Assembly: GCA_002427545.1 (NCBI GenBank)
Contig: DIRM01000040.1
Coordinates: 1-59,918 of the forward strand
Reading direction: 5' to 3'
Source: Mageeibacillus sp. UBA5436
GTDB taxonomy: Bacteria > Bacillota > Clostridia > Saccharofermentanales > DTU023
Length of the DNA: 59,918 bases
In this document: positions 15,430 to 29,978 of the stretch, one piece after another
How positions within the stretch are numbered: the stretch's first letter is position 1
Layout: each line of letters opens with the position of its first letter
Position numbers and translations under genes: made by a program
The notes under the pieces: model-generated
Told to the model about the DNA's origin: nothing
Seen by the model: only the letters and a program-made list of their open reading frames with translations
The model's database searches: none

Positions 15430-16566
15430 TTATTCCTCACATGTCGTCACACCATAGCAACCTAATACCTCGAAATATTCGGTAGTTGCAGCTGCTTGTC
15501 GTAAAGCAGAAAGTACGCGCTTATCGTTAATATTTCCTTGTATTTCTGCAAAGAAACGATATTTATCTGCAGAAACTGGTCGAGACTCTATGCGCATTAA
15601 ATTAAGACCATCTGCCATGAACGGCATTAATGCTTCACATAATGCACCGCTACGATGCTGAGTCGAAAAAGTGACTGAAATGAGATTACTTTGCTCATCA
15701 TATTCAGGTTGGCGTGAAATCACGACAAATGAAGTTCTATTATCAGCGGAATCCATAATATTGGGTTCAATCACTTCTAAACCATATAGTTCAGCTGCAT
15801 GGCGGGAAGCAATAGCGGCCTTCTTTTTTTCGCCTGCTTGAACGACCTGTTTTACTGCTACTGCAGTATTTCGGCAAGCAGTTTGATCCCAAGCTTTTCC
15901 ATATAAATAACGGCTACATTGTTTTAATCCTTCGGGATGACTAAGCACCTCTCGAATATCAGTAATTTTTGTTTCTGGTAAACCAACTAAATTTTGTTGA
16001 ATAGATATCCACATGCGCCCAACAATATAACAACCATATTTGCGCAAAAGGTCATAAATTTCACCTATAGCACCTGTTTTAGAGTTTTCGATGGGGACAA
16101 CACCATAATCTACCTCACCGTTTTTTACAGCAGTAAATACATCAACAAAATGCTCCACTGGGCGACGCTCTGCTTCTGGATACAAGCATGATACCGCTTG
16201 TTCGCCCCATGCACCAGGTACGCCTTGATAAGCACAAGTTACTAATCCAGTTACCGGTTTAACAGCTGGCGGCAAAATAGGGGTAGCACCAGAAAATTGT
16301 TGACGCCGTTGATATTCTCTCGAGAGACCCATAATGGTACGCATCAGCAGGTCTGTTTCACTTTTAATATCATCTTCAACATAATTCAAGGCTTTTTCAA
16401 CAATTTGATTTTCACGAATTTCATCTTCGACTGCTAGATTATGTTCACATTTTACAGCTGCTACCCTTTTAGAAATATCCATCCGCTTTTGGAAAAGAGG
16501 AATCAATGCCTCATCTATATTATCTACTTCGGTTCTTAATTCAGCTAATTGTTCTTTCCATTCCAT
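15430..16566 (-). CDS. pheA: Bifunctional chorismate mutase / prephenate dehydratase (P-protein) with ACT domain
   Basis: 378 aa. N-terminal CM helix (LRTEVDNIDEALIPLFQKRMDIS), PDT core (YQGVPGAWGEQA...ENSKTGAIGE...TSFVV) and a C-terminal ACT (SGALCEALMPF...NLMRIESRP). Confidence 0.9.
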   Translation of the reverse strand: MEWKEQLAELRTEVDNIDEALIPLFQKRMDISKRVAAVKCEHNLAVEDEIRENQIVEKALNYVEDDIKSETDLLMRTIMGLSREYQRRQQFSGATPILPPAVKPVTGLVTCAYQGVPGAWGEQAVSCLYPEAERRPVEHFVDVFTAVKNGEVDYGVVPIENSKTGAIGEIYDLLRKYGCYIVGRMWISIQQNLVGLPETKITDIREVLSHPEGLKQCSRYLYGKAWDQTACRNTAVAVKQVVQAGEKKKAAIASRHAAELYGLEVIEPNIMDSADNRTSFVVISRQPEYDEQSNLISVTFSTQHRSGALCEALMPFMADGLNLMRIESRPVSADKYRFFAEIQGNINDKRVLSALRQAAATTEYFEVLGCYGVTTCEE

Positions 16567-25219: not shown

Positions 25220-26869
25220 CTATTGATTCTTTTTATTTTTATTATATAGCATAGCGGCTTCTATAAAAGCTGCAAAGATTGGATGCGGTCTAACAGGTCT
25301 TGATTTAAATTCGGGATGCGAAATCATACCAATGTAAAATGGATGTTCTGGATATTCTACAGCTTCAATTAATTTACCATCTGGAGAAGTTCCCGAAAAA
25401 ACAAGACCAGCCTGTAATAAAGGCCCTTGCCATGCAGGATTAAATTCACGGCGATGATGATGTCTTTCTGAAGCATCTGTCCTTTTATATATTTTTGCTA
25501 AGCGGGTATCTGCCTGAATACTCATTGGATATGCACCCAATCGCATGGGTTGTTCTGTTAAAGGTATATTTTCAAGATTTTCTTTTTCCTCTTCTGTTAA
25601 ATCAGCATAATAAAATATGTCTGAACAATCTCTTTCGCATTCATCTGAATGTGCATCTTTAATACCTGCAACATTTCTAGCAATTTCAACAACACTCATT
25701 TGCATGCCAAGTCCCAAGCCTAAAAATGGAATTCTATTTTCTCTAGCATATTTTGCAGCAACTATCATACCTTCCATGCCTCTAGGTCCAAAACCACCAG
25801 GAATTAAAATGGCATCTGCTTCTGCAAAAATAATATCTAATTCCTCTTGAGTTTTATCTTCTAAAGTGTCGCTATCAATCCAAATGATTTCAGAATCACT
25901 ACCATGTTTGATGGATGCATGTAAAATAGCTTCTACACAAGATAAATAAGCATCTTGCATCTCGACATATTTGCCGACTAAAGCAATCTTAATTTTTTTG
26001 GTCATATATTGAATCTGTTCATTTAACAATTTCCAAGAACTCAAATCAGGTTCAACAAATTGCGCAATTTGTAATTGTTTGCATACCGCATTGGCAAATC
26101 CCTGTTTTTCAAAATATAAGGGCAATGCATAAACTGTAGGCATATCTAAATTTTCAATAACATTTTCAAGTTTAACATTACAAAAATTTGCAACTTTTCG
26201 ACGAACCGAATCATTGATAGGATGCTCTGATCGTAAAACCAAAATATCTGGTTGCACACCGTAAGATAACATTTTTTGAACACTATGTTGTGTAGGTTTC
26301 GTTTTCAATTCGCCTGGATTATTTAAATAAGGTAAAAGAGTAACGTGAATAAACAAACAATTTTCACGACCAACTTTATAACTAATTTGCCGTAAGGCTT
26401 CAATAAAAGGTGTACTTTCCATATCACCAATCGTGCCACCTACTTCGACAATGACTACATCAGTTGGTTGTTCACGGGCAACTTTAAACATATGCTCTTT
26501 TATCTCATTTATTATATGAGGTACAACTTGAACCGTACCACCATTATAATAACCTTCTCGTTCTCTTTGGATTACTTCTTGATATATCATGCCCGAAGTA
26601 ATATCAGATTCAGCTGAAAGGTTAACATCTGTAAATCTTTCATAATGACCTATATCAAGGTCTGTCTCTGCGCCATCTTCTGTAATAAATTTTTCACCAT
26701 GTTGAATAGGGCTCATCAAAGCCGTATCAACATTAATATACGGATCAAATTTTTGCGTCACTACACTTAATCCGCGAGCCTTTAATAAGGCACCTAAAGC
26801 AGCTGCTGTAATACCCTTTCCTAAACCAGAAACAACACCTCCAGTTACAAAAATATACTTTGTTGACAT
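25220..26869 (-). CDS. pyrG: CTP synthase
   Basis: 549 aa. MSTKYIFVTGGVVSGLGKGITAA N-terminus and a GATase domain with GLGLGMQ and HRHRRE-like HHHRREFN. Confidence 0.95.
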   Translation of the reverse strand: MSTKYIFVTGGVVSGLGKGITAAALGALLKARGLSVVTQKFDPYINVDTALMSPIQHGEKFITEDGAETDLDIGHYERFTDVNLSAESDITSGMIYQEVIQREREGYYNGGTVQVVPHIINEIKEHMFKVAREQPTDVVIVEVGGTIGDMESTPFIEALRQISYKVGRENCLFIHVTLLPYLNNPGELKTKPTQHSVQKMLSYGVQPDILVLRSEHPINDSVRRKVANFCNVKLENVIENLDMPTVYALPLYFEKQGFANAVCKQLQIAQFVEPDLSSWKLLNEQIQYMTKKIKIALVGKYVEMQDAYLSCVEAILHASIKHGSDSEIIWIDSDTLEDKTQEELDIIFAEADAILIPGGFGPRGMEGMIVAAKYARENRIPFLGLGLGMQMSVVEIARNVAGIKDAHSDECERDCSDIFYYADLTEEEKENLENIPLTEQPMRLGAYPMSIQADTRLAKIYKRTDASERHHHRREFNPAWQGPLLQAGLVFSGTSPDGKLIEAVEYPEHPFYIGMISHPEFKSRPVRPHPIFAAFIEAAMLYNKNKKNQ

Positions 26870-27043
26870 AGACTCTCCTCGTTCTAATAATAAGTTTTAA
26901 TGTATCTATTCATAATAGGATATAAATATATGTGAGATATAAACTTAATCTTAATTTAACTCATTTAATCATTCTAATTATTGCCATCTTCGATGTCAAT
27001 TTGTATTATTAATACATAACTTTTTAATCTTTAGGGGGCTATT

Positions 27044-28588
27044 ATGCATATTATCTTAAGCAATATCACTTTCTCCATGTTCGAAATGCTGTTTATTGTG
27101 ATAATTCCAATTCTATTAATTATCGCTGGCATTATTTATATAGCTTTGAGCCAAAAACAAATGAATCTCTTCCAAAAGGCTCTTCATAATGTCATTAATG
27201 ATATCAAAGATACAGAAGAATATTCTATAGAAAATACAATTTTATTAAAAGAAGCTGTAGATGATTCTGATTATCCATTATTAAGTGACGCTATCAATCA
27301 GACAATTGAAAATGGCAATAAAAAATATCAAGGAAAGTGGTTGCCAGAATTATCCGAAAGATTAAACACTGGTTTTTTAAGCTCTAAACAATTAAAAAGC
27401 TCCTTGAGTGATACGCCTGCCTTATTGATATTTTCTTGCGGCTTTATTGCTTCTCTAATCATGATTATTTTACCTTACATTAATCCTAATGTTTATAGCC
27501 AAAATTTAATTTTTTCTACATTGCCATTATTGGTTGCTGCCTTAATTTCTCTCTTTCTATTGAATCATAAAAATGTTTTATCTAAGAATATGAATATTGA
27601 AATCGATGATTTAAAGAAAAGCATTGAACAAATTATTCCTGTTTATTCAGATAAAGCTGGTCTTTCTTTATTGGTAAATGAAATGACAGAACATGAAAAT
27701 AAGATTGATGCTTCTTTGACAGAATTTAATCATCAATTAGATGAATTTGTTTCTGAAGATTTTCAAAATTCTTTAAATGATTCCATTCGTGAAATCATGG
27801 AAAAAGAAATTGCTCCACCAATCAACAAAGCTTCAGAAACATTATCCGATCTTGCTACTTCTTTAGCTGAGCAACAAGATCAAGGCATGTCGGAACTGGC
27901 TGAAAGTTTTTCAGAAAAATTAAATATTTCACTAAAAAATAATTTTGCTTCAATTACCAATGAATTGAGCTCTTTTAATGTATTAATGGAAGATACTACG
28001 AATTTCATTCATGATTCGATTGCCATACTAGAGAATTCACGTCAACAAAATATTCTTTTAAATCGTGAAGTGAGTGATTCAATTGAACTAATGACAGTAG
28101 CTAAAAATGATATTGCAAATGAAATGGCCAAAATGTCTGATTATTTAGAAGTGATAGCCAATGTTACTGAAAAGATGACTTCCGTTTATGCCGGTGAAGA
28201 CGCCAATTTAAAACAACAAATTGGCAGCTTGGAATTAGCTTTAAATAGTTCCTTAAATACAATTAATGAGAGTATTTATCAATCACAATCTACTATGTCT
28301 TTAAGTTCACAGTTAAAAGAAGAGCAACAAGCACAATATTCAGATATGATAGAAAAGATGAATTCTTTATTAGTAAATTTGAATACTGTCAATCAGTCCA
28401 TTCACGATACAACTGATAATTTTGCAATTGAATCAGGCAAATTGGTAAAAACAAGTCTTAATAATTATGAAAAAGCCTTATCTGATATTGTTGAAAGATT
28501 GATTTATACCACAGCTGAAATTAAAGACGCTGTTGAAGCCTTGCCTTTAGCTATCAATGCAAAATCAGATTATTTTGAGAAGAAATAA
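27044..28588 (+). CDS. Membrane protein: TM1, ~87-aa loop, TM2-TM3 hairpin, ~340-aa alpha-helical tail; unknown function
   Basis: 514 aa. SD aggggg lies 7 nt before the ATG. Hydrophobic segments at residues about 14-35, 124-146 and 155-176. The rest is Ser/Asn/Glu/Leu-rich with heptad-like periodicity. I recognise no catalytic motif. Confidence 0.45.
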   Translation: MHIILSNITFSMFEMLFIVIIPILLIIAGIIYIALSQKQMNLFQKALHNVINDIKDTEEYSIENTILLKEAVDDSDYPLLSDAINQTIENGNKKYQGKWLPELSERLNTGFLSSKQLKSSLSDTPALLIFSCGFIASLIMIILPYINPNVYSQNLIFSTLPLLVAALISLFLLNHKNVLSKNMNIEIDDLKKSIEQIIPVYSDKAGLSLLVNEMTEHENKIDASLTEFNHQLDEFVSEDFQNSLNDSIREIMEKEIAPPINKASETLSDLATSLAEQQDQGMSELAESFSEKLNISLKNNFASITNELSSFNVLMEDTTNFIHDSIAILENSRQQNILLNREVSDSIELMTVAKNDIANEMAKMSDYLEVIANVTEKMTSVYAGEDANLKQQIGSLELALNSSLNTINESIYQSQSTMSLSSQLKEEQQAQYSDMIEKMNSLLVNLNTVNQSIHDTTDNFAIESGKLVKTSLNNYEKALSDIVERLIYTTAEIKDAVEALPLAINAKSDYFEKK

Positions 28589-28598
28589 TTAATACAAT

Positions 28599-29531
28599 AT
28601 GGATATTCGAAAATCAAATTTAAGTTTTACAAAGAATGATAATTCTGATAATAAAGCGTTAGATAGTAACGTTGATAAAAATAATTCTCTTCAAAATGAT
28701 GTTTCAAAGATTTATGAAGATGAAAATTTTGAGGAGAATATTTCTATTAGAAAAGCTCCAAAGATTGAAGTTAATGAAATTGATTTATCTCCTGATCATT
28801 TAAAAAGGATTAGTAATGCCAATATGGAAGAATTGGTTGAATTAGCAAAAGAAGTGCATCCTTTACCACGAGAATTTCAAATGGAAATCAAAAAAACACA
28901 TCGTAATTATTTCATTTCAAAATTAAGGAAAATTAATACAGAAAATGAATTAGTTGATTTTGCTTTTCAATTAACACATAGAGAATTAGCATTACTTTTT
29001 CCTGTTTTAGCTACGAGTAATAGATTAAGTATTAATGAAAAAATAAAAAAAATAATTACCTTACGATCTAGTAAAGTTTTATATGCACATGGCTGGGTCA
29101 CTTTGCAATATATTTATCCTGATAATCGATTTGCCAAAAATATTAGTAATTTGTGCCGAGACTTAGAAAATGAAAATTTTCACTTTCAAAAATTAATGGA
29201 AACATCTGCAAAAGAGGAAAAAATAGCTATCAAATCTTTACCTTATCCTCATTTTGATTGGTCTAATATCCGCCTAATTACAGAGATATCAGCACCAGAT
29301 AATCGTCGTTTTATGAATTCTATCACGAATTATATTTTAGAAAATGAACTTTCACTAAAAGAGTTTTTCTATCAATTTGGTATTTATGATGATTTGGCTC
29401 TAGGTTTAGCTATTCAGAAAAATTATGATGTTGAGAAATTAGAAAAATCTATTGGTTTTAATGATAATAATAGAACATCTTGGCGTGAGTTATTTCAAAT
29501 GGACAAAGATGATTCGGATGAACTTTATTAA
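28599..29531 (+). CDS. Soluble protein of unknown function, probably co-transcribed with the 27044 gene
   Basis: 310-aa ORF beginning 10 nt after the upstream stop. No TM segment and no motif I can name. The SD is weak. Confidence 0.4.
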   Translation: MDIRKSNLSFTKNDNSDNKALDSNVDKNNSLQNDVSKIYEDENFEENISIRKAPKIEVNEIDLSPDHLKRISNANMEELVELAKEVHPLPREFQMEIKKTHRNYFISKLRKINTENELVDFAFQLTHRELALLFPVLATSNRLSINEKIKKIITLRSSKVLYAHGWVTLQYIYPDNRFAKNISNLCRDLENENFHFQKLMETSAKEEKIAIKSLPYPHFDWSNIRLITEISAPDNRRFMNSITNYILENELSLKEFFYQFGIYDDLALGLAIQKNYDVEKLEKSIGFNDNNRTSWRELFQMDKDDSDELY

Positions 29532-29543
29532 TGTTTGATAATA

Positions 29544-29978
29544 TTAATAAGTAATGACCAAATCTGCTGAAAATAAAGTAGCATTAATCTGATGGATTGA
29601 CATTTTTACGGTAGATTTATTTAATTTATCATCTGCGGCTAAAAATTGCGAAATAGAATCTGTGCTTATACCTATTATTACTTCATGTTGATACAAAAAG
29701 TTTAAGGTTGATTCAATGGGACTATCCTTCCTGGCAAGGACAACAGTATCATTCATAAAAATAACATGACTTGGCAAGATTTCTTGAAACACTAAATCAT
29801 TAATTAATTTAATCGTTTGTTCTCTATTACGTTTGTCATTATTATTTGCAAACTGATTGATTAAAAGTACTATTTTTTTCTTTTTTTCTTTTTTGGTATC
29901 TATTAATTCTGTTTGTATTAAATCATCTTGCCAAATATTTATTTCTGTTTTTTTCTGTAAATCTATCTTATCCTTCAT
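29544..29978 (-). CDS. Small protein resembling the DsrE-like C-terminal domain of long YedF-type proteins, cysteines absent
   Basis: 144 aa. The pattern ...VIFMNDTVVLARKDSPIESTLNFLYQHEVIIGISTDSISQF...MSIHQINATLFSADLVITY parallels my recollection of the YedF C-domain (IIFLNSGVKL...GVEILSCGTCLNYY...MYTIVE...). It has GISTDS where CGTC is expected. Confidence 0.35.
   Translation of the reverse strand: MKDKIDLQKKTEINIWQDDLIQTELIDTKKEKKKKIVLLINQFANNNDKRNREQTIKLINDLVFQEILPSHVIFMNDTVVLARKDSPIESTLNFLYQHEVIIGISTDSISQFLAADDKLNKSTVKMSIHQINATLFSADLVITY

Follow-up and report, generated by a model that had tools for sequence, protein, structure and literature searches.

The question raised by this locus is what two plus-strand genes are doing within a long run of minus-strand housekeeping genes in Mageeibacillus sp. 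UBA5436, a member of the Saccharofermentanales. The window, that is, the whole stretch of 59,918 nucleotides (nt) of contig DIRM01000040.1 analysed here, contains no plus-strand open reading frames (ORFs) of at least 200 amino acids (aa) between positions 15430 and 59740 other than these two, referred to here as gene 1 and gene 2. The original prediction, made from the sequence alone, had described the pair at 27044-29531 as the only plus-strand genes of the run, separated by 10 nt, and its coordinates are exact. The answer reached here is that gene 1 is a genuine, though highly diverged, homologue of ZorA, and that gene 2 is a relative of ZorC reduced to its N-terminal half, so that parts of the Zorya anti-phage system are apparently used in this organism for something other than rotary, DNA-cutting defence.

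Zorya is known as an obligate four-part machine, in which the anchoring of ZorB and the ion-driven rotation of ZorA recruit ZorC and ZorD, and the phage DNA is cut (PMC11946911). Every component is essential, as are the aspartate of ZorB and the binding of peptidoglycan, and ZorA and ZorB are treated as the universal core of the system (PMC11946911, PMC11890865). The system is reported to be under-represented in single-membrane bacteria (PMC11946911).

Hydropathy places the first transmembrane (TM) segment of gene 1 within residues 1-39, and the second and third at residues 123-148 and 152-175, a topology that is kept in all 12 of the diverse homologues analysed. The AlphaFold2 (AF2) model has helices at residues 12-55, 124-146, and 160-197, and a predicted local distance difference test score (pLDDT) of approximately 85 over residues 1-200. 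The Lys-rich segment that follows TM1 suggests, by the positive-inside rule, that the N-terminus lies outside the cell. The membrane-proximal cytoplasmic domain carries a conserved KY.GKWLP motif, and the invariant positions of the family, W99, P199, and P258, are all cytoplasmic. Across the family, TM2 and TM3 rank among the most weakly conserved regions, and TM3 carries a conserved proline. The tail (residues 177-514) is rich in Ser (11.8%), Leu (10.9%), Glu (10.7%), and Asn (9.8%), with four prolines and five glycines, and its hydrophobic period of 3.58 residues compares with 3.56-3.58 in genuine ZorA and 3.50 in a heptad repeat, which fits the unusual ZorA bundle (PMC11946911). The tail block at residues 318-385 is a candidate protein-binding surface, given its invariant alignment columns. 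The predicted succession of TM1, loop, TM2-TM3 hairpin, and Ser/Asn/Glu/Leu-rich helical tail is thus borne out by hydropathy, structural model, and composition.

The relationship of gene 1 to ZorA is found in both structural and profile comparisons. In a Foldseek search of the PDB with the gene 1 model, ZorA ranks first (8qyk/8qyd/8qyy; for 8qyk_A, E 4.4e-4 and a target-normalised TM-score of 0.57-0.60), and ExbB and TolQ occupy nearly all of the remaining top 40 positions (6ye4, 5sv0, 8odt, and others). A profile of the N-terminal 268 residues, built from 14 diverse members and run exhaustively against 1.84 billion representative proteins, matched only 142 clusters. The upper tier of these matches is the gene 1 family itself, and in the lower tier, where the whole N-domain is aligned at E 1e-14 to 1e-4, 41 of the 42 proteins are ZorA according to PADLOC (best E 7e-36). 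One lower-tier match, P0133 (E 1.7e-7), has a ZorA1-type membrane domain, its residues 19-357 being aligned with profile positions 24-364 (E 8e-33). The alignment of the gene 1 family by hhalign with ZorA from complete zorABCD loci (99.4%, E 4.9e-21, 475 columns) is collinear from TM1 through the C-terminal motif. The PADLOC ZorA1 model matches residues 210-501 of gene 1 over its last 300 positions, ending at position 660 of 663 (E 2.9e-7, 27 bits), and a tip motif is common to the C-terminus of this profile and genuine ZorA, with AEIKDAVEALP in gene 1 against SEIKESVDELP in ZorA. The MotA/ExbB/ZorA-like topology and the ZorA-like long tail that had been proposed from the sequence both find support in these results. 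Scans of both proteins against Pfam and NCBIfam returned nothing significant, with no PF01618 match for gene 1 at E<=1, and sequence-profile searches of the PDB with the gene 1, gene 2, and partner alignments found neither ZorA nor ZorC.

Gene 1 shares with type I ZorA (E. coli NCTC 9026, PDB 8QYD/8QYK/8QYY; Shewanella ANA-3, 8VVN; PADLOC ZorA1; NF033914) the three-TM topology with the N-terminus predicted outside, the cytoplasmic domain between TM1 and TM2, the long C-terminal helical tail with the same period of approximately 3.58 residues, the juxtamembrane and tail-start motifs LPV, I.PP, and Q.EGM..LA..F, and the tip motif ..EI.D/ESV.ELP. It differs in its shorter tail (approximately 310 residues, against approximately 500), in the lack of a ZorB partner, and in being a core, vertically inherited gene, rather than one borne on an island. 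With the A-subunits ExbB, TolQ, and MotA (PF01618), it shares the fold of the TM and membrane-proximal regions, as seen in the Foldseek search, but it has no PF01618 match, no conserved set of TM Thr/Glu/Pro residues, and no B subunit, and it carries the long tail in addition.

Gene 2 was originally regarded as a novel partner without a nameable motif, a view that is overturned by its alignment with ZorC. The hhalign comparison of the gene 2 family with genuine ZorC (95.5%, E 1.4e-8) pairs residues 101-275 with residues 39-190 of the 392 of ZorC, and a tblastn search of the whole genome with genuine ZorC recovers gene 2 as the sole match (28% identity over 170 aa, E 3e-4). The core of the protein contains the motifs LPRE, LFP.LA, R..S..LY.HGW.T.Q..YP, and F..YGIYDDL.LG, and in the joint alignment gene 2 and its orthologues in the same family of genomes (f1) end directly after the last of these blocks, which corresponds to ZorC residue ~200. 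The missing half includes the Trp/Arg network and the signature Glu (VVVEF), and the PADLOC matches of genuine ZorC, at residues 224-389, fall there. In EcZorC, the EH motif (the Glu400/His443 network) and the globular domain at the C-terminus are needed to bind DNA (PMC11946911). In two sister families, f3 and f4, the partners, at 408-641 aa, are longer, and an additional domain is present at their C-terminus. No PADLOC match was obtained for gene 2 or for any of the ZorB-less partners, and no TM segment was found by hydropathy in gene 2, as originally predicted, or in 12 diverse orthologues.

Gene 2 thus resembles type I ZorC (EH-signature, PF15611, PADLOC ZorC1) in the first ~200 core residues (A.SL..EL, R....LY..W..Q..Y, F....I...S.L), and in its position after a ZorA-like gene on the same strand. 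It departs from ZorC in lacking the C-terminal half (the Asp/Arg/Trp network, the signature Glu/His, and the C-terminal globular domain), in having no PADLOC or Pfam ZorC match, and in the presence of an N/D/S/K-rich N-terminal extension, which is probably disordered, judging from the structural model, and varies in length among the orthologues.

Of the four-gene zorABCD set of type I Zorya, only the A-like and half-C-like genes are present in this genome, which is 92.7% complete. Genome-wide searches found no MotB_plug, OmpA, or PF01618 domain, no ExbD above the cut-off, and no relative of genuine ZorB or ZorD at the sequence level. No single-TM gene stands beside the pair in any of the related loci examined, and no ZorD or other nuclease is found in or beside the module. 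The idea of a hidden B subunit was rejected following searches with MotB_plug, OmpA, ExbD, and genuine ZorB sequences. The earlier statements that the pair has no ZorB/MotB-like partner and no nuclease, and that it is not a recognisable Zorya system, are supported, with no B subunit or ZorD recovered anywhere in the genome. A 67-aa frame on contig C27 (25309-25470), interrupted by an in-frame TAG, has an ExbD-like score of 17.7 bits, which is below the cut-off; it spans the TM region of the model, and is taken as noise.

Genuine ZorA (L044, L050, and L052) has G(I/V)LGTF in TM2 and AF.TS in TM3, with a long loop between them. In the clade of the window, as well as in a clade associated with pilus genes, the GTF/TS motifs have disappeared and 12-14 residues are missing from the outer loop, and of the ion-pathway site formed in EcZorA by Thr147/Ser184, only G133-x3-S137 remains in gene 1. 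The notion that TM2 is devoid of any conserved polar residue was rejected, given that the hhalign register shows Ser or Thr at the position of the ZorA Thr. A working stator is unlikely because the stator-type ion-pathway motifs are degraded. The cautious description of the module as, at best, a stator-like or membrane-tethered filament protein with a novel partner therefore stands in part: the predicted fold resembles that of ZorA, ExbB, and TolQ, but the stator motifs are degraded and the partner is not novel.

The distribution of the pair was established by whole-genome searches of 61 related genomes, belonging to families f1 (that of the window, n=37), f2, f3, and f4. Gene 1 is present in 53 of these genomes, including 37/37 in f1 and all those sampled in f3 and f4, and is absent from the f2 genomes. 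The searches recovered gene 2 in 49 of the 61, in each case directly downstream of gene 1 and on the same strand, which answers the question of co-occurrence posed in the original prediction, with adjacency across three families. The gene 2 profile missed its target in four f3 genomes, two of which were checked and have a partner ORF downstream; the ORF of G038 is homologous to gene 2, and that of G041 has no match to the gene 2 profile. The pair is not a chance pair of ORFs, because the three-TM topology recurs in every homologue analysed and the adjacency in most of the genomes. Among 300 evenly drawn Clostridia genomes (178 genera), the family is confined to the Saccharofermentanales. A word-indexed search of 5.8 billion proteins returned only 15 relatives of gene 1 and six of gene 2, mostly from fermenter metagenome-assembled genomes labelled “Clostridiaceae bacterium”, and only two with the partner profile; this approach under-reported the family badly, and exhaustive hidden Markov model and whole-genome searches were needed.

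The pair is single-copy and, within the genus, syntenic, being preceded by GreA, inosine monophosphate dehydrogenase (IMPDH), and pyrG, and followed by a lipoprotein, a penicillin-binding protein (PBP), and Ddl. This is not the patchy, accessory distribution of a defence system. A homologue with 34% identity to gene 1 lies elsewhere, between ATP synthase and M20 peptidase genes on one side and an RlmD-like methyltransferase gene on the other, and the C-terminal 200 residues of the protein encoded by the next gene match gene 2 (E 5e-30). This homologue is still paired at a different locus, and the co-occurrence is therefore independent of the surroundings. Family f4 has second, longer paralogous pairs (a protein of 865-1061 aa with one of ~410 aa, such as 1057 aa with 408 aa; G039:C1, G042:C49, G048:C1, G057:C169, and G060:C1), which means that the two genes were duplicated together, and these long paralogues form a clade of their own (100/99). 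In one such case (L033:4109-8564, G039:C1), an unknown protein of 337 aa and a LytR_cpsA_psr protein are encoded after the long pair. Compared with two congeners, the window has an identity of 53-55% in gene 1 and of 42-53% in gene 2, against 76-85% for PyrG and IMPDH, 60-64% for the PBP, and 30-33% for the lipoprotein.

The nearest relatives outside the order are found in a different setting. The outgroup ZorA-like proteins P0103, P0104, P0105, and P0110 are each followed by a protein of 379-433 aa, whose two domains are both homologous to those of the f3/f4 partners (hhalign 99%, E 7.8e-18). A phylum-wide search with the partner profile recovered loci L050-L052, which carry, in this order, ZorA1 (E 1e-33), ZorB1 (5e-88, with the motif YWQSYSDLMAALLLMF), a homologue of the partner, and ZorD1 (E 0), and are canonical type I Zorya. 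The partner homologue in these loci is ZorC1 with the “EH signature” according to PADLOC (2e-7 and 1.7e-15), and this genuine ZorC matches the partner profile at approximately 1e-28 to 1e-30. At least seven independent loci, with a GC content of 39% to 63%, have a ZorB-less pair formed by a ZorA-like protein (646-917 aa) and a two-domain ZorC-like protein (379-436 aa) within a type IV pilus cluster, between the pilin and pilB/pilT, with pilC, pilM, and pilD nearby. No published description of such ZorB-less ZorA/ZorC pairs was found in the literature searched. In G657, a congener of G445, a 116-aa ZorC-like fragment lies beside pilT/pilB/pilD (L053:9843-10193), and the ZorA-like gene is gone. 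In another locus (L044:6001-8957), a ZorA with intact GVLGTF and AFSTC motifs (PF28082, “ZorA-like_t1”) lies only 210 nt ahead of a ZorC-like gene, which leaves no room for ZorB between them; the contig ends soon after, and ZorB and ZorD may lie elsewhere.

In a tree of the N-terminal 300 residues, which is unrooted, the proteins of the order group in a single clade (100/99), genuine Zorya ZorA forms a clade of its own (97/94), and the pilus-linked proteins form a grade between the two. The pair in the window resembles the pilus-cluster pairs of the Bacillota in being a tightly coupled two-gene unit without ZorB or ZorD, and in the same loss of the stator motifs and shortening of the loop in gene 1. 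It is unlike them in its short tail, its half-length partner, and its genome without pilus genes: no homologues of PilC, PilD, PilM, or pilin were found there, and no pilus neighbours in the loci of the Saccharofermentanales members. Across the order, the pair is also uncoupled from T2SSF, given that f3 has the pair without T2SSF and f2 has PilC without the pair. On these three grounds, a pilus link was rejected for the genome of the window. A T2SSE-like ATPase gene adjoins that of a 510-aa protein whose T2SSF domain is weak on contig C7 (9373-11405), and a T2SSF-like ORF of 500-570 aa occurs in nearly all f1 genomes and some f2 genomes; the C7 genes may represent a relic of a Tad-like or other type IV filament.

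Given this, the module is, on balance, probably a reduced derivative of type I Zorya, which acts as a membrane-tethered scaffold, either static or signalling through its conformation, in a housekeeping role outside defence. By analogy with ZorA, gene 1 would form a pentamer, with the TM2/TM3 hairpins in the membrane, and its C-terminal ~310 residues would bundle into a cytoplasmic stalk of approximately 45 nm (310 x ~0.15 nm). The product of gene 2, probably from the same transcript, would most likely dock on this stalk through the retained half of ZorC, either at the central block of residues 318-385 or at the ZorA-type tip motif. The complex could not operate as a proton-driven rotary sensor that recruits a nuclease, because the ZorB-like axle and anchor, ZorD, and the EH half are absent, and the ion-pathway motifs are degraded. 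It is read as a housekeeping, non-defence scaffold because it is a vertically inherited, single-copy core pair of three families of the Saccharofermentanales. The pair may descend from the ZorB-less pilus-cluster pairs of other Bacillota, or be sister to them, and here it would work without pili.

A number of observations weigh against this reading. The curated ZorA and ZorC models remain below threshold on gene 1 and gene 2 (19.1 bits for NF033914, the NCBIfam ZorA model, on gene 1, against a cut-off of 190). The tail helices of gene 1 in the AF2 model (205-234, 238-378, and 386-498) are of low confidence (pLDDT ~50), and the gene 2 model is poor (pLDDT 49.7), to the extent that a search with its fold is meaningless. 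The docking of gene 2 on the stalk is taken solely from the relationship between the ZorA tail and ZorC in Zorya (PMC11946911), and nothing indicates what the scaffold would organise. The faster evolution of both genes relative to PyrG and IMPDH is compatible with an arms-race role as well. Of 14 family members, 13 retain a Ser or Thr where hhalign aligns the filter Thr of ZorA, and some residual channel-like function of gene 1 is conceivable from the alignment.

A broader scenario, possible but rather doubtful, is that the ZorA/ZorC pairs without ZorB and ZorD are a separate, non-defence branch of Zorya in the monoderm Bacillota, in which a stalk in the cytoplasm, anchored to the membrane, and its adaptor were employed first in type IV pili and then, in the Saccharofermentanales, as an indispensable core device of the cell envelope or cell cycle, independent of rotation, of DNA binding, and of pili, or else that they represent the ancestral state, from which Zorya arose by the gain of ZorB and ZorD. 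In either case, if true, the retained half of ZorC would be an autonomous module that binds the ZorA tail. It is unlikely that the pair is still an anti-phage or anti-mobile element sensor, a minimal Zorya in which the ZorB-free stalk senses the envelope and the ZorC-like partner signals to, or recruits, a remote effector. Both proteins are related to components of a defence system, both genes evolve faster than the neighbouring housekeeping enzymes, and the tip motif of the ZorA tail, on which Zorya depends to recruit effectors, has been kept (PMC11946911). Set against this, the pair is single-copy in every sampled f1 genome, in a syntenic housekeeping locus, unlike the patchy, island-borne defence systems, it has neither ZorD nor a nuclease in or beside it, the EH half is missing, and Zorya tolerates the loss of none of its components, nor of the ZorB Asp or the binding of peptidoglycan (PMC11946911, PMC11890865). 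A role as an accessory left over from a type IV pilus or filament, still working with the distant T2SSE/T2SSF-like genes of the genome, appears less probable still, given that PilC, PilD, PilM, and pilin are missing from the genome, and that the order provides neither co-occurrence with T2SSF nor pilus neighbours, even though the nearest relatives outside the order lie in pilus clusters at seven independent loci, and contig C7 encodes a T2SSE-like ATPase together with a T2SSF-like protein of 510 aa.

A further idea is that the module is a working ion-driven motor of the 5:2 type, with a B subunit that is unrecognisable or encoded elsewhere. The ZorA/ExbB/TolQ-like fold, the conserved G-x3-S/T of TM2, which coincides with the filter Thr of ZorA, and the conserved proline of TM3 speak for such a motor, which is nevertheless very improbable: the genome has no relative of MotB-plug, OmpA, ExbD, or ZorB, and the loci examined have no single-TM neighbour, the TM2 and TM3 segments, which are the most conserved in stators, are the least conserved in gene 1, and the GTF/TS motifs have been lost, together with part of the periplasmic loop that packs against ZorB. 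An unrelated coiled-coil scaffold (EzrA-, MCP-, or apolipoprotein-like), which would resemble ZorA through composition and generic topology, might account for the lack of significant matches in Pfam, NCBIfam, and the PDB sequence searches, for a first PADLOC match limited to the tail, and for the weak matches of the JetC/LmuB coiled-coil models to a homologue. It is scarcely credible, however, given that a profile of the N-domain alone retrieves ZorA, that the full-length alignment is collinear, and that homology to ZorC, the product of the gene that follows zorAB in type I Zorya, is found independently in the partner. The check for an EzrA or MCP family that had been suggested for gene 1 gave no such Pfam match at E<=1 (EzrA, PF06160) and no PDB profile match, and the EzrA, MCP, and generic coiled-coil readings are effectively refuted by the N-domain profile and by the hhalign results for both ZorA and ZorC. 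The reduced Zorya scaffold remains the preferred reading.

The surroundings of the pair in the window (Table 1) are those of a housekeeping locus. The pyrG gene (25220..26869, minus strand) lies upstream of gene 1, as does the IMPDH gene, also on the minus strand, and the 174-nt divergent intergenic region between pyrG and gene 1 contains the promoter candidate. Downstream of gene 2 are a 144-aa ORF and the genes for a 278-aa lipoprotein and a PBP of class B. The 144-aa ORF (29544-29978, minus strand) is convergent with gene 2, and is weakly similar to the C-terminal part of the YedF-type selenium-metabolism proteins (TIGR03527, E 1.4e-5, well under the cut-off); a counterpart of 150 aa is conserved in L004 and L005, and absent in L002.

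The short spacer makes translational coupling or a single transcript probable for the two genes. The locus is contained, at an identity of at least 99%, in RNA-type libraries from biogas and compost samples, and in run X1 a single contig (26990-29179) extends from the promoter-like site through the junction between the genes. The pyrG contig of this run ends at 26984 and the contig of the pair starts at 26990, a break inside the divergent promoter region that is compatible with two divergent transcripts. The RNA-type data are contigs that may include DNA, which makes them weak evidence of co-transcription, and no proof. The earlier suggestion of one transcript is thus favoured by the 10-nt gap and by the contigs that cross the junction, within the limits of such contigs.

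Table 1. Positions of the genes, protein regions, and signals of the module in the window, and of the related pairs in pilus clusters (residues refer to the protein concerned).
Feature	Coordinates	Strand	Description	Basis
Promoter candidate, sigma-70-like	26981..27009	+	TTGCCA-17-TATTAT; 10/12 matches, pattern match only	Consensus scan
Shine-Dalgarno-like TAGGGGG	27033..27039	+	4 nt ahead of gene 1 ATG	Read from sequence
Gene 1	27044..28588	+	514 aa; divergent ZorA-like: 3 TM, membrane-proximal cytoplasmic domain, long helical tail	ORF
TM1	27083..27148	+	Residues ~14-35; N-terminus predicted outside	Hydropathy; AF2 helix 12-55
Membrane-proximal cytoplasmic domain	27149..27412	+	Residues 36-123; matches that of ZorA	Alignments
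TM2-TM3 hairpin	27413..27571	+	Residues 124-176; G133-x3-S137 kept, ZorA stator motifs lost	
Cytoplasmic helical tail	27572..28585	+	Residues 177-514	AF2 helices, periodicity, collinearity with ZorA tail
Most conserved tail block within genus	27995..28198	+	Residues 318-385; FIxDSIAILENSRQQNILLNRE...VYAGED	Invariant alignment columns
C-terminal tip motif VERLIYTTAEIKDAVEALP	28490..28546	+		PADLOC ZorA1 alignment, family consensus, hhalign
Spacer between gene 1 and gene 2	28589..28598	+	10 nt (TTAATACAAT) after TAA stop; without Shine-Dalgarno	
Gene 2	28599..29531	+	310 aa; soluble ZorC-like protein cut down to ZorC N-terminal half	ORF
Gene 2 N-terminal extension	28599..28796	+	Residues 1-66; low-complexity, N/D/S/K-rich	AF2 pLDDT ~30, alignments, composition
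Gene 2 conserved all-alpha core	28797..29453	+	Residues 67-285; first ~200 residues of ZorC, EH-signature half absent	
Pilus-cluster pairs	L042:124-3395, L043:398-4096, L045:1040-4116, L046:6001-9668, L047:8785-12293, L048:7517-10860, L049:6906-10884			

The persistence of a ZorA stalk and the front half of ZorC over the long term, as a core pair across the order and without the axle, the nuclease, or the DNA-binding half, is in itself a departure from the view of Zorya as an indivisible machine. It also represents a risk for genome annotation, given that parts of a defence system are found here in a housekeeping setting, where pipelines label them “hypothetical”. The pair in the window adds the most reduced form of this arrangement, with a short tail, a half-length partner, and no pili, together with its order-wide core status. 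As a consequence, the ZorA-type stalk would have a function that is independent of rotation. Recognition of the ZorA tail is probably a task of the N-terminal half of ZorC, with the pair in the window implying that this half may be a self-sufficient module.

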